Shown here piece after piece: positions 2,133 through 60,405 of a DNA stretch of 64,000 bases. Within the stretch, counting starts at the first letter, position 1; each line of letters opens with the position of its first letter. Position numbers and translations under genes: made by a program. The notes beneath the pieces were generated by a model, which was not told the DNA's origin, did not search any database, and was given only the letters and a program-made list of their open reading frames with translations. Origin of the DNA: Escherichia coli (lineage in GTDB: Bacteria > Pseudomonadota > Gammaproteobacteria > Enterobacterales > Enterobacteriaceae); assembly GCF_050920415.1 (NCBI RefSeq), contig NZ_CP169309.1. The stretch is one strand, 5' to 3'.

Positions 2133-2432
2133 ATGGCGCTTACAAAAGCTGAAATGTCAGAATATCTGTTTGATAAGCTTGGGCTTAGCAAGCGGGATGC
2201 CAAAGAACTGGTTGAACTGTTTTTCGAAGAGATCCGTCGAGCTCTGGAAAACGGCGAACAGGTGAAACTCTCTGGTTTTGGTAACTTCGATCTGCGTGAT
2301 AAGAATCAACGCCCGGGACGTAACCCGAAAACGGGCGAGGATATTCCCATTACAGCACGGCGCGTGGTGACCTTCAGACCCGGGCAGAAGTTAAAAAGCC
2401 GGGTCGAAAACGCTTCGCCCAAAGACGAGTAA
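2133..2432 (+). CDS. ihfA: Integration host factor alpha subunit
   Basis: 99 aa, ATG at 2133, N-terminus [17 protein letters not shown] matches IhfA; hairpin terminator downstream. Confidence 0.97.
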
Positions 2433-2446
2433 TCTGATCTAACTAA

Positions 2447-2475
2447 AAAGGCCGCTCTGCGGCCTTTTTTCTTTT
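2447..2475 (+). terminator. Rho-independent terminator after ihfA
   Basis: GC stem ggccgctctgcggcc followed by T-tract tttttctttt. Confidence 0.7.
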
Positions 2476-2532
2476 CACTGTCGAAGAGTCACCGTAAAAT
2501 CAACGCCATGACACTTCAGCAGAACGGATACC

Positions 2533-22095: not shown

Positions 22096-22239
22096 TGTTA
22101 ATTCCTGATTCAGGTGTAATTTTCCCTACGCCAGATGGAGAATTAGAGCGCAGAGACTCACGAAATATTTTTATTAAATACGGTTGAATATATTTTTTTA
22201 GTTCGGCGGGGGAGGGTATTCCCGCCGAAATATTATTGC

Positions 22240-26613: not shown

Positions 26614-26711
26614 AGGTTCTACTTAGCAAAGGTGCTTTAAAAAGTGAAGCGATGTTGTCTCAGCATCCGTTCATTATTGTTGTAACAACGACAATTCCTT
26701 TCTTTGGAAAA

Positions 26712-27068
26712 TTAACAAAGGCGCTCCAGATCGTGTGCATATAATTCAGCGGCTACCGATTGATAGATCTTCCAGTCAATAAAATTGCCATCAGGGTAGA
26801 CACGTTGAAACGCGGTTAAGTCAGGGAAAAAACGCATGGTGTTGTTGCCGATGCGGTTATTTATTTTCTCTATGATGGCATGAAGATGTTTTTTTCGTTG
26901 CTGTCGCATAGCCAACAGTTGCTCGACCACACGATCAGGAATGGCGCATTTGCCATTTTCCCACTGACGCCAGCTTTCACTGTCACCGGTCTGGGCAATC
27001 CAGGTCGCGCATTCATCAATAGTCATGGCAAAAATATGGCGAAGTGCCTGGAGTTCATAAGCGTTCAT
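26712..27068 (-). CDS. ydiL: DUF1870-type small protein YdiL
   Basis: 118 aa from in-frame ATG (MNAYELQALRHIF); the ORF-track start at 27095 is TTG. Confidence 0.75.
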   Translation of the reverse strand: MNAYELQALRHIFAMTIDECATWIAQTGDSESWRQWENGKCAIPDRVVEQLLAMRQQRKKHLHAIIEKINNRIGNNTMRFFPDLTAFQRVYPDGNFIDWKIYQSVAAELYAHDLERLC

Positions 27069-27206
27069 CGTGTAATGGCTGCATGAAATAAACAATAAAA
27101 TATAAATAACATTATCAGCCTGCCGACGGCTTGAAGAGAGTCACAGTATCTTGTGCAACATTATTGGAAAGAGTGAGGGGGCGAGGTAGCGAAGCGGAAA
27201 AATGTT

Positions 27207-27312
27207 AAAAAAAAGCCCATCGTGGGAGATGGGCAAAGACTACACACAGCAATTCGTTGTTTCACTCAGGGGATTTCCATGCTTATAAATCAATATGTTG
27301 ATTTATAACCGT
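27207..27312 (-). ncRNA. rprA: RprA small regulatory RNA (Hfq-dependent activator of rpoS translation)
   Basis: Reverse complement reads ACGGTTATAAATCAACATATTGATTTATAAGCATGGAAATCCCCTGAGTGAAACAACGAATTGCTGTGTGTAGTCTTTGCCCATCTCCCACGATGGGCTTTTTTTT, recognised as RprA with its intrinsic terminator. Confidence 0.88.
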
Positions 27313-27497
27313 GAGCTAATAGTAGGCATACGGACTTTTTGCGTCGATCAGATTCGTCTCATTAGTTTAAAAACTGTAAAGAATTTGCGACAGGTACTAC
27401 CAGCTGAAAGGCGGTAAGCAGGAAAATATAGTGAAGAGCAAGCAAATATCAATTAGCGGTGGTTAACAATCAGGCGGCAGAACCGCCTGATGAGAAA

Positions 27498-28610
27498 TTA
27501 CTTATTCGGTTTCTCGATTTCGCCAAGTTCTTCGAGAACTTCTTCCGGTTGGTCAGTCGGCGGTGGGACTTCTTCCACCCACGCGGCAAACAGACGCCAG
27601 GAAACGGCTAACAGAACCGGACCAATAAACAGACCGATCATCCCGAAAGCAATCAAACCACCAATAACGCCAGAGAGGATCAGGATCAGCGGTAAATCGG
27701 CACCCATGCGAATTAACATTGGGCGGATGACGTTATCCAGCGTGCCAACCACACCGCTCCACACTAACAATACCGTTCCCCAGGTGGTATCGCCGGTCCA
27801 GTAGAGCCAGATAATCGCCGGAATCAGTACCGGCAATGGGCCAAGCTGGACAAGGCAGGAGAGGATCATTAACACCGTGAGCAACGTTGCATAAGGTACG
27901 CCGGATACCGCGAGGCCGATACCGCCAAGCACTGCCTGTACTAACGCTGTCACCACAACACCCAGCGCCACTGCGCGGATAGCTTGTGCCGCTAGCAGCA
28001 CGGCGGCATCTCCACGAACGCCTGCCAGACGGGTAGCAAAATGGCGAATGCCTTGCGCCACTTGTTCACCGCGCCAATACAGCAGGGCGCTGAAGAGAAG
28101 CATCAGCGCACAATGCACCATAAAGCGCCCGATATGCGCCGCCTGCCCAACGAACCAGGTGGTGGTGGTGCCAATATAAGGACGGACTTTGGCCATGATC
28201 GCCGTGCCTCCCATATCCAGCAAGTTGTGCCAGCCTGCATACAGCTTCGTGCCAATCACCGGTATGGTATTAAGCCATGCCAGATCGGGTAACGTCATGT
28301 CACCGCTGGAAATGGCTTTAATCAGTGGACCGCTGCCATCGACAATACTGTTAACCAGCAAAGCAATAGGGATGATAAACACCATCACTAATAACAGCGT
28401 CATCACCAGAACGGCAAGAGAGCGGCGACCAAACATGATCTTTTGCAAACGTAACAATACCGGCCAGGTGGCGATAACCACCGTACCAGCCCATGCAAAG
28501 CCGAGAATAAAGGGTTGTACAATCCACAGACATGCCACAATCATGATGGCTAAAAACAGCACCGAAAGCAGAATTTGTGCGACATCCCTGGGCTGACGAA
28601 CATTTACCAT
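27498..28610 (-). CDS. ydiK: AI-2E (UPF0118) family inner-membrane transporter
   Basis: 370 aa, ATG at 28610, N-terminus MVNVRQPRDVAQILLSVLFLAIMIV. Confidence 0.9.
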   Translation of the reverse strand: MVNVRQPRDVAQILLSVLFLAIMIVACLWIVQPFILGFAWAGTVVIATWPVLLRLQKIMFGRRSLAVLVMTLLLVMVFIIPIALLVNSIVDGSGPLIKAISSGDMTLPDLAWLNTIPVIGTKLYAGWHNLLDMGGTAIMAKVRPYIGTTTTWFVGQAAHIGRFMVHCALMLLFSALLYWRGEQVAQGIRHFATRLAGVRGDAAVLLAAQAIRAVALGVVVTALVQAVLGGIGLAVSGVPYATLLTVLMILSCLVQLGPLPVLIPAIIWLYWTGDTTWGTVLLVWSGVVGTLDNVIRPMLIRMGADLPLILILSGVIGGLIAFGMIGLFIGPVLLAVSWRLFAAWVEEVPPPTDQPEEVLEELGEIEKPNK

Positions 28611-28998
28611 AACTACTTTTCACCTTTTTTGTGCGTCAAATCGTCGACGCGACGTGAACACGCGAAACTCACCTGCATAATGATGAGCAATTTCAGCGGT
28701 TTTTAACAGGCCGATTCTGCCCTTAATTCTGATGGGCGTGTTAGAAAAAAATGTGGTACAACAACTCAGGCAACACGCAAACGATTTACTCGTCGTATTT
28801 CAAATTGCATGTGCTGCGGCTACGTTCGTTCACCCCAGTCACTTACTTTTGTAAGCTCCTGGAGTTCACTCGCTTGCCGCCTTCCTGCAACTCGAAATCC
28901 ATAGAGTAAACAAACATCACCTTTCAGTGCGCTATTGCAGCCGCCTGAAAGAATAGTGTATCGACCTACATCACAGACCGCAGGAAAGGGTCAATATA

Positions 28999-32750: not shown

Positions 32751-32949
32751 TCCTGACGTAATGCCGCGAGTTCGCCAAATCGGCCTGGATTAATCTTCGT
32801 CCAGGTTCGAGGGCCTTCTTAATACTGCTTTTCTACCCGCCTGATAACGTTCAAAAATAATACAAATCGCAGTTTGTGCTAAAACAGCGGCTTAGCTTTA
32901 TGAGACTATTCTTATCGCCCCTTCAAGAGCTAAGCCACTGTGAGTGCCG

Positions 32950-33017
32950 GAGATAAGCGCCGGATGGGGTAGAAACCCTTAAGCCTGTGATGCACAGACT
33001 TAAGGGTTTTCTTATTT
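32950..33017 (+). ncRNA. rydB: Candidate RydB sRNA (boundaries approximate)
   Basis: Strong hairpin aacccttaagcctgtg...cacagacttaagggtt plus T-tract in the ydiH-sufA spacer, where rydB is expected; the RydB sequence itself was not recalled. Confidence 0.4.
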
Positions 33018-50691: not shown

Positions 50692-50997
50692 TCAGGCGAG
50701 TTTTGCCTGATTGATTTGACTCAGTGGCTCATTGACATCGAAAACTTTGGCGACAACTTCCTCAACGCCGAGATTTTTCAGTCGGGCAGTATGTTTTTCC
50801 AGATAGGCAAGGGCGCTTTTTTCATCAGTGAAAAGGTAGATCCCACCGGCTTCGTGGTTCTTTTCACTTTCTGTCCATACCTTCCACAGAAAACCAGGTT
50901 CCTGATTAATTGACTCAGCAAGCGGTTTAAGCTGCTCAGCCATTGCGTCGCCAAATGGGCCATTAAAAGCAAAATGAAGTTGTAACAAAGTTGCCAT
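50692..50997 (-). CDS. ydhR: Small dimeric alpha/beta-barrel (putative monooxygenase) protein YdhR
   Basis: 101 aa, ATG 50997, [16 protein letters not shown]. Confidence 0.85.
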
Positions 50998-51104
50998 AGC
51001 GATTCTCCTTCTGATAACGCATACGAAGACAGTGTAAATCTTTTAACGTATTGGATACAGAGAAGAAACAGAGGGAAAAAGGAGAAGACCAGATTAAGAA
51101 AATC

Positions 51105-51181
51105 TGGTGCGTCCGAGTGGACTCGAACCACCGACCCCCACCATGTCAAGGTGGTGCTCTAACCAACTGAGCTACGGACGC
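51105..51181 (-). tRNA. valW: tRNA-Val (anticodon GAC), downstream copy
   Basis: Reverse complement GCGTCCGTAGCTCAGTTGGTTAGAGCACCACCTTGACATGGTGGGGGTCGGTGGTTCGAGTCCACTCGGACGCACCA folds as tRNA with anticodon GAC and encoded CCA; valV/valW names assigned by position only. Confidence 0.95.
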
Positions 51182-51185
51182 AGGA

Positions 51186-51262
51186 TGGTGCGTTCAATTG
51201 GACTCGAACCAACGACCCCCACCATGTCAAGGTGGTGCTCTAACCAACTGAGCTATGAACGC
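51186..51262 (-). tRNA. valV: tRNA-Val (anticodon GAC), upstream copy
   Basis: Reverse complement GCGTTCATAGCTCAGTTGGTTAGAGCACCACCTTGACATGGTGGGGGTCGTTGGTTCGAGTCCAATTGAACGCACCA; 4-nt spacer to the second copy. Confidence 0.95.
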
Positions 51263-59852: not shown

Positions 59853-59896
59853 TCCATTTCACTCCAGACCCTAACTTCAGCTCCTGCAAAATCGCA

Positions 59897-59912
59897 AGGT
59901 AAACGTTTGCCT
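59897..59912 (-). promoter_or_regulatory. PUR box (PurR operator O1) in the purR leader
   Basis: Minus-strand GGCAAACGTTTACC, palindromic pur box core about 50 bp upstream of the purR ATG. Confidence 0.55.
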
Positions 59913-60150
59913 TTACACACCTTACGCACAACAAAAATGTTGCGGTACGCCGGAAAAACGACACGGAGCGTCAGGAAGGGGTCAATGGCCAGTACGCAAA
60001 TAGTGTAAGCGTGGAATTTTGGCCGATCTTGACGAAAAGGGGAAGTGGTAAAAACACTTATCATTATAAATGACGGGAGATTTTTTCATCACAGTGTGTA
60101 AAAATGCGTAATATCACTTTTTGTGTGGTAATAAAAAAGGAGAAAACTTG

Positions 60151-60240
60151 ATGAGCACCGACCTTAAATTTTCACTGGTAACAACAATTATCGTCCTCGG
60201 TTTGATCGTGGCCGTGGGTTTGACTGCCGCGCTGCACTGA
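60151..60240 (+). CDS. ynhF: Small membrane protein YnhF (29 aa)
   Basis: ATG at 60151 encodes MSTDLKFSLVTTIIVLGLIVAVGLTAALH, a single transmembrane helix, with RBS aggaga upstream; not in the ORF track because it is under 60 aa. Confidence 0.6.
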   Translation: MSTDLKFSLVTTIIVLGLIVAVGLTAALH

Positions 60241-60405
60241 TTTCCTCTCGAGGGAGCGCGTTCTCCCTCGCATCTCCTTCCTGTTTGTTAGCAAAATGGC
60301 AAAAGTGTTTTCTCTTTTTGTTATTTTCATTTTTTTGTGATTGCTGTCATGCTTTCGCCACTTTAATGAATATCGCGTAATGACGCGAAGAGGTGGAGAT
60401 AAGGC

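Follow-up and report, generated by a model that had tools for sequence, protein, structure and literature searches.

The minus-strand element at positions 27207-27312 of the window, the term used here for the whole 64,000-nt stretch of Escherichia coli DNA that was analysed, is with a probability of about 97 % the chromosomal rprA gene of this strain, and would encode the approximately 105-nt, Hfq-dependent small RNA (sRNA) RprA. It is a known, routinely annotated and near-universal E. coli sRNA gene and, as such, an ordinary find; no new biology arises from rprA itself. The gene anchors the window as the ydiK-rprA-ydiL region, situated at approximately 1.77 Mb on the K-12 map and in reverse orientation. 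The sRNA link that runs from Rcs to RpoS and CsgD appears to be intact in the strain, promoter included.

The rprA gene, its structure and its promoter

The whole window was searched by cmscan with Rfam 15. A match to the RprA family (RF00034) was obtained on the minus strand at 27312-27205; it scores 118.5 bits (E=1.6e-16), where the gathering score is 70, and covers model positions 1-108 of 108 without truncation. The first-pass annotation had reported a full-length RprA on the minus strand, complete with terminator hairpin and U-tract and situated between ydiL and ydiK, and had named a covariance-model search as the means of checking it; that search, with the threshold exceeded over the full model, clearly upholds the identification. 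Direct comparison with rprA of K-12 MG1655 (b4431; NC_000913.3 1770372-1770477) revealed identity at 106 of 106 positions, so the interval proposed in that annotation coincides exactly with the boundaries of the K-12 gene. The label given to the gene by PGAP in a 100 %-identical strain (NZ_CP169399.1) is 'antisense sRNA RprA'. The coordinates of the gene, its parts and its neighbours are collected in Table 1, together with those of related elements discussed below.

The predicted fold of RprA consists of a 5' hairpin, an open linker and a terminator, in agreement with the helices of RF00034, and its stability shows a modest excess over that of shuffled sequences (z = -1.99). A terminator scan recovered the hairpin GCCCATC-TCCCAC-GATGGGC at 27234-27215, followed by eight T residues, as the first-pass annotation had described; the 3' end formed in this way is the putative Hfq-binding end. 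The 18-nt core ATTGCTGTGTGTAGTCTT occurs once in the window, with two mismatches allowed, as compared with 0.00 occurrences expected from 100 shuffles, so the match is not due to chance.

The surroundings of the gene are those found in K-12, with the order ydiJ<, ydiK>, rprA>, ydiL>, ydiM>, and the two flanking ORFs place rprA between ydiL and ydiK, as had been claimed. The transcription start lies directly downstream of ydiK, whose stop codon is at 27498. The orientation and the terminator are also the same as those of K-12 RprA, there is no difference within the gene, and the 96 bases that precede the start (-96 to -1), including the dyad TGAGACGAATCTGA and the -10 element, do not differ from K-12 either. 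The block containing TGAGACGAATCTGA is conserved in an alignment of 102 chromosomal loci. At the level of sequence, the features expected of the family are all present (a score above the gathering threshold, identity to K-12, the terminator, adjacency to ydiK and identity of the promoter), and so is the Rcs-box-like dyad of the promoter.

Table 1. Positions of the rprA gene, its parts and neighbours in the window, and of RprA-related elements elsewhere. Positions are those of the window unless a locus (L number) is given.
Feature	Position	Strand	Basis or remark
rprA, full-length RprA sRNA, 106 nt per K-12 annotation	27207-27312	-	Rfam RF00034; identity to b4431
rprA +1	27312	-	
rprA 3' end, in U-tract	27207	-	Rfam and PGAP reach 27205
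RprA 5' stem-loop, nt 3-32	27281-27310	-	MFE and centroid folds; equals first helix of Rfam consensus
RprA linker, nt 33-62, rpoS mRNA leader-pairing region	27251-27280	-	Duplex with K-12 leader; PMC3465796
Conserved core ATTGCTGTGTGTAGTCTT, nt 60-77, 5' end of processed RprA60-105	27236-27253	-	18-mer match; PMC3465796, PMC9262595
Intrinsic terminator: 7-bp stem (5 G-C pairs), 6-nt loop, T8	27207-27234	-	Terminator scan
-10-like hexamer TACTAT (-12 to -7)	27319-27324	-	Read from sequence; assigned by position
Rcs-box-like dyad TGAGACGAATCTGA (-49 to -36), putative RcsB site just upstream of -35	27348-27361	-	Read from sequence
ydiK, AI-2E family transporter, 370 aa, upstream neighbour, full length	27498-28610	-	ORF list; annotation in matching genomes
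ydiL, DUF1870 protein, 118 aa, downstream neighbour, full length	26712-27068	-	ORF list; annotation
RprA modules of P1-like phage-plasmids	L006 2947-3049; L007 2955-3057; L009 2930-3057		
RprA module of Erwinia phage Ea9-2	L251 2490-2552		KF806588.1 ~22,126-22,188
RprA module of Escherichia phage vB_EcoM-606R2	L250 3501-3546		
K-12 e14 element inside annotated ymfH	L254 1480-1565		NZ_CP032667.1 ~2,680,123-2,680,208
Further lambdoid elements: STnc100-type stem-loop, RprA-core-like seed and DicF hairpin	L142 7800-8000; L153 8201-8401; L158 148-207		

That the element is no working sRNA gene but the remnant of one, decayed or silent, or simply the terminator of ydiK, is very improbable. The presence of a sequence is in general no proof of its expression, and the rprA promoter went undetected in a simple sigma-70 scan, but the latter result is expected, because that promoter is activator-dependent and lacks a good -35 element. 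Against such a remnant stands the comparison with the functional K-12 gene, from which neither the RNA nor 96 bp of promoter differs at any position, in a setting where the neighbouring genes have each diverged by 3.1 % (35 of 1,113 positions in ydiK and 11 of 357 in ydiL). The Rfam match is, moreover, full length, and ydiK possesses a hairpin of its own straight after its stop codon, at approximately 27470-27492.

The stretch without K-12 differences around rprA extends from 27178 to 27408 (231 nt) and ranks 24th among 1,667 identical runs, the median of which is 20 nt; it is in the same class as the runs at ihfA and the tRNA-Val genes. Outside rprA, the differences from K-12 are substitutions at -97, -118, -120 and -170, and one inserted C and one substitution in the gap between rprA and ydiL. 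Approximately 115-140 nt upstream of the rprA start, at 27425-27452 on the minus strand, the sequence TTGATA-16 nt-TATATT resembles a sigma-70 site (10 of 12 matches) and has the orientation of rprA. Of the four intergenic differences from K-12, two (27432 and 27430) fall within it, and the change at 27430 converts the K-12 hexamer CATATT into the better -10 hexamer TATATT. In this lineage, transcription from the site might read through into rprA and yield a longer RNA.

Distribution of the locus and the RNA families of the window

The 2-kb ydiK-rprA-ydiL segment was matched in 5,424 of 5,426 complete E. coli genomes, where PGAP applies the label already mentioned, and the 108-nt RprA alone in 5,423 of the 5,426, with an identity of at least 99 % in 5,421. 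It is apparent from the last figure that RprA is unable to separate K-12 from other strains. The same is not true of the 2-kb locus (26700-28650), which reaches an identity of at least 99 % in only two of the 5,425 matching E. coli records and is 100 % identical only to that of MFDS1022581, an animal-source food isolate from Korea. For this reason, the window would appear to come from an uncommon lineage or to contain a locally divergent block of alleles.

The first-pass annotation had further concluded from RprA that the sRNA complement is K-12-like. As an inference from a near-universal gene this does not hold, but for the window the statement stands on other evidence. The 64-kb window forms one reverse-oriented block with K-12 1,733,693-1,797,684, with 97.26 % identity and no large indels, and the K-12 interval is annotated with rprA, rydB and the two tRNA-Val genes valV and valW, for all four of which the window has Rfam matches. 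The RNA set of the window is therefore K-12-like, in view of this colinearity and the shared RNA-family matches. The strain itself is not especially K-12-like, with a divergence of approximately 2.7 % (1,761 differences) over the window and its best match in MFDS1022581.

Additional Rfam matches in the window were to STnc550, STnc540 and HPnc0260. The STnc550 match (59853-60243, plus strand, 395 bits) ends in the 29-codon cydH (ynhF) ORF, ATGAGCACCGACC...CACTGA, and is colinear with K-12 b4602; because it ends there, this 'sRNA' family corresponds to the 5' UTR and coding region of the mRNA for a small accessory protein of cytochrome bd-I. The STnc540 match (2374-2532, plus strand, 67 bits) is colinear with K-12 and comprises the last ~60 nt of ihfA and the 3' UTR up to btuC, and so represents a candidate 3'-UTR-derived RNA. 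The match to HPnc0260, a 'bacterial antisense RNA' (50981-51143, plus strand, 112 bits), overlaps the tRNA-Val genes at 51108-51181 and 51189-51262 on the minus strand. Its score appears to owe much to a 3' part that is the reverse complement of a tRNA-Val gene, and the match is probably an artefact of the family model and not an sRNA gene here. The rydB match (32917-32977, plus strand, 83 bits) is situated upstream of sufA, at the position equivalent to that in K-12.

Beyond E. coli, contigs representing one genome per species were scanned for exact matches to the 18-nt core, and at least 120 Enterobacterales loci were found. Among the matches listed, the carriers include Escherichia, Salmonella relatives, Klebsiella/Enterobacter, Yersinia, Serratia, Erwinia, Pantoea, Dickeya, Pectobacterium, Photorhabdus, Xenorhabdus, Providencia, Proteus, Morganella, Edwardsiella and Arsenophonus. 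A ydiK homologue is located directly upstream of the core in 102 of the 120 genome loci listed, and this adjacency is also seen in Klebsiella. These 102 loci were aligned; since they were fetched by exact core match, the invariance of the core in the alignment is not evidence of conservation. Three of the seven pairs of the terminator stem have undergone compensatory double changes that preserve the pairing; 16 sequences have UA in place of CG, nine have GC or UA in place of AU, and four have CG or AU in place of UA. The 5' half of RprA, including the rpoS-pairing linker, is conserved within the Enterobacteriaceae and varies widely outside that family.

Several variations on this arrangement were observed. 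In Klebsiella, rprA is followed by ppsA instead of ydiL. Several Klebsiella records of 110-144 kb that are filed as plasmids contain ydiJ-ydiK-rprA-ppsA, with a full-length RprA (113.5 bits) that is 98 % identical to that of E. coli; an example is the K. pneumoniae 'plasmid' NZ_CP079158.1 (46,175-54,280; L008), with related records H27-H31. A plasmid-borne RprA gene in Klebsiella was considered and rejected, the segments being chromosomal ones filed under plasmids; the records are either mislabelled pieces of chromosome or plasmids with captured chromosomal DNA. The core is present twice in some species, one of the two copies having no ydiK in front of it (pairs L043/L044, L053/L054, L069/L070 and L082/L083); at least L043 and L070 cluster with the viral copies and are therefore of the prophage type. 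In one locus (L091) RprA is reduced to its 3' part, beginning at AAATCCCCTGAGTG and preceded by unrelated sequence; another (L113) has a full rprA with its Rcs box and no ydiK within 800 nt.

Expected activities of RprA

The present analysis covers the sequence of the gene, its promoter-proximal 96 bp, its structure and its position; the steps described below are taken from published work on the identical K-12 RprA. By analogy, phosphorylated RcsB, from the Rcs envelope-stress phosphorelay, would act at the Rcs box that immediately precedes the -35 region and thereby bring about transcription of rprA. RcsB-dependent regulation of rprA has been described (PMC3465796, PMC7241856, PMC7814967), and in Erwinia the Rcs box lies immediately upstream of -35 (PMC7814967). 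The linker (nt ~33-62) would pair with the rpoS leader at approximately -117 to -94 and open an inhibitory hairpin, so that more RpoS is translated; such anti-antisense activation of rpoS by RprA is documented (PMC3465796). Cleavage of RprA would release a ~47-nt 3' fragment that begins at nt ~60 and carries the conserved core, and both the full-length and the processed RNA would be expected to repress csgD, ydaM (dgcM) and narP. For K-12 RprA, expression, Hfq dependence and processing by RNase E to the ~47-nt form are known (PMC3465796, PMC9262595). In this manner RprA may tie envelope stress to stationary-phase and biofilm decisions.

The rpoS, csgD and narP leaders of the strain lie outside the window, and the K-12 rpoS leader was used for the pairing calculations. 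With that leader, a duplex of -23.1 kcal/mol was obtained between RprA 33-62 and rpoS -117 to -94. A scan of the leader in 30-nt windows against RprA nt 31-78 put the published site in third place, and energies as good as that of the best site were reached with 33 of 100 shuffled linkers. An RNAduplex calculation with full-length RprA and the 597-nt rpoS leader was discarded; the resulting structure was loop-rich and unrealistic, and 24 of 100 shuffles did as well. Because the energy scans fail to single out the site, the pairing with rpoS rests on the published compensatory-mutation work (literature in PMC3465796 and PMC7547250).

A different weighting of the activities of the same gene has to be considered, and it is a substantial possibility, albeit one held at less than even odds. 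The dominant activity would then be the repression of csgD, ydaM and narP, and of other targets, by the core of the processed fragment, and not the activation of rpoS by the linker. In an rprA knockout the levels of sigma-S are hardly changed, while csgD and ydaM are clearly repressed by RprA (PMC3465796). The last 47 nt, RprA60-105, coexist with the full-length RNA (PMC3465796, PMC9262595) and are enough on their own for repression of csgD (PMC3465796) and for one mode of narP control (PMC9262595). The core and terminator are, in addition, conserved among loci that were fetched by exact core match, and the 5' half is the part that varies outside the Enterobacteriaceae. The compensatory mutations cited above argue in the opposite direction, as does the conservation of the linker within the Enterobacteriaceae, and the two activities are not exclusive of each other.

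The activating region of the rpoS leader with which RprA pairs is also the pairing site of DsrA and ArcZ, the other sRNA activators of rpoS in the core genome, and of the phage RNA StxS, and ArcZ, RprA and StxS all act as 3' fragments processed by RNase E (PMC7547250). DsrA, ArcZ and StxS nevertheless share neither sequence nor locus with RprA, and their inputs differ from that of RprA, which is Rcs. They are functional analogues and not members of the family.

RprA-core sequences on mobile elements

Comparison of RprA with plasmids and phages yielded partial matches that span only nt ~52/60-107, none of which is annotated. The 3' module of RprA is carried by P1-like phage-plasmids of E. coli, Enterobacter, Citrobacter and Klebsiella, where its neighbours are pacase A, a late promoter activator, tRNAs and the anti-Thoeris protein Tad2. 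Lytic N4-like phages of Erwinia, Ea9-2 among them, have it as well, as do E. coli phages of ~42 kb in which repressor, ner and transposase are arranged as in Mu. For the phage-plasmid copies, the alignment extends over the whole Rfam RprA model, but at 55-63 bits the scores stay below the threshold of 70; the range for mobile copies overall is 44-63 bits.

The exact 18-nt core was found on at least 120 viral contigs (loci L130-L249), and in none of those listed is ydiK situated upstream. The copies fall into 61 sequence clusters. Of the 114 that are clearly without ydiK, 85 have a hairpin with a T-run immediately after the core. In predicted folds, the phage core precedes a strong terminator and shows weak pairing at best, an arrangement also seen in processed RprA.

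RNAs with the 18-nt core and a terminator thus exist on mobile elements, and the window copy could in principle be one of them, a DicF/STnc100-type prophage sRNA or a phage-plasmid copy, and not the core-genome rprA. This is extremely unlikely. The window copy has a complete 5' half and scores 118.5 bits, well outside the range of the mobile copies; it lies directly downstream of ydiK, a placement seen in 0 of the 120 viral loci listed; and no inserted prophage interrupts the colinearity of the window with K-12. A DicF/STnc100-type identity was also rejected for the element, which has RprA's own terminator and shows no match to DicF or STnc100 at the site. The identification as chromosomal rprA is accordingly retained.

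The RprA 3' end could be present in phages as an attP site for integration at rprA; this explanation was rejected for the carriers examined, which do not include every one of the 61 clusters. For these carriers the idea fails because Ea9-2 is lytic, the Mu-like phage, with its repressor, ner and transposase, is transposable and the P1-like phage-plasmids do not integrate. For the lambdoid copies it fails because they lie inside the immunity/early region and not next to an integrase.

Many of the viral copies are located in lambdoid immunity/early regions, near CI-type repressors, SieB and a DnaB-like helicase, as is characteristic of elements of the DicF (RF00039)/STnc100 (RF02076) type; a large protein encoded downstream of the lambdoid copies looks RecE-like by eye. 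Many elements of this type have the core of RprA nt 60-77, or a close variant, single-stranded before the terminator. They differ from RprA in lacking its 5' hairpin, its rpoS-pairing linker and synteny with ydiK, and they score below the RprA gathering threshold. Alignment with the K-12 dicF locus revealed that the hairpin after the core in the lambdoid copies is the 3' structure of DicF, GGCGGTAYCAG...CCGCCC(T)n. The upstream stem-loop of STnc100 is present in some of them as well; in L153 (RF02076, 48.9 bits) the RprA core replaces the usual pre-terminator segment of that family. K-12 carries such an element in its prophage e14, within the ORF annotated as ymfH; it has TATGCTGTGTGTAGTCTT, a 16 of 18 match to the RprA core, with sub-threshold scores for DicF and STnc100.

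A second census was anchored on the DicF-type hairpin and not on the core. It returned at least 120 viral loci, and 113 of those listed were new. Among the matches listed, the seed AAAGCTGTGTGGAGTCTT occurred 28 times, the e14 type nine times and the exact RprA core seven times; over all hairpin-census loci listed, the exact core was present in 14 of 120. Clearly different seeds, such as GGCAGTTGTGTAGTTGTTT, were also recovered, and the census as a whole delineates a graded seed family around GCTGTGTG(G/T)AGTCTT. These sequence comparisons suggest that DicF, STnc100/PasD and the lambdoid RprA-core elements form one modular family with swappable seeds.

No description of a link between the RprA core and phages was found in the searchable literature, which leaves out most subscription-journal papers; since that coverage is incomplete, novelty of these elements cannot be claimed firmly. 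RprA is never linked to phage in a Pas sRNA preprint dealing with STnc100/PasD or in a paper on Erwinia RprA, and for ymfH no E. coli sRNA paper was found in the same literature. The nearest precedent for a phage RNA at the rpoS site used by RprA, DsrA and ArcZ is StxS (PMC7547250).

A broader reading is offered tentatively and must be regarded as rather doubtful: the RprA 3' module would be one allele of a seed family borne by mobile-element sRNAs, and the phage RNAs would either mimic processed RprA or share ancestry with the chromosomal RprA. The carriers of the family would then comprise the lambdoid DicF/STnc100-type elements, including 'ymfH' of e14, the P1-like phage-plasmids, the Mu-like phages and the lytic N4-like Erwinia phages. 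If they are mimics, the phage RNAs would turn on the output of Rcs and RprA (for example, repression of csgD and narP) independently of envelope stress. If the phage copies are functional, prophages, phage-plasmids and lytic phages could trigger part of the envelope-stress and biofilm programme of the host, and the StxS precedent would be extended to direct sharing of a seed with a core-genome sRNA.

Exact 18-mers in a few of the loci (L209, L109, L077 from Bacteroides, and L099) are attributed to chance, as they have no terminator after them and lie in unrelated contexts. The matches in N4-like phages of Salmonella and Shigella were likewise set aside; they span nt 76-107 only and represent similarity of the terminator.
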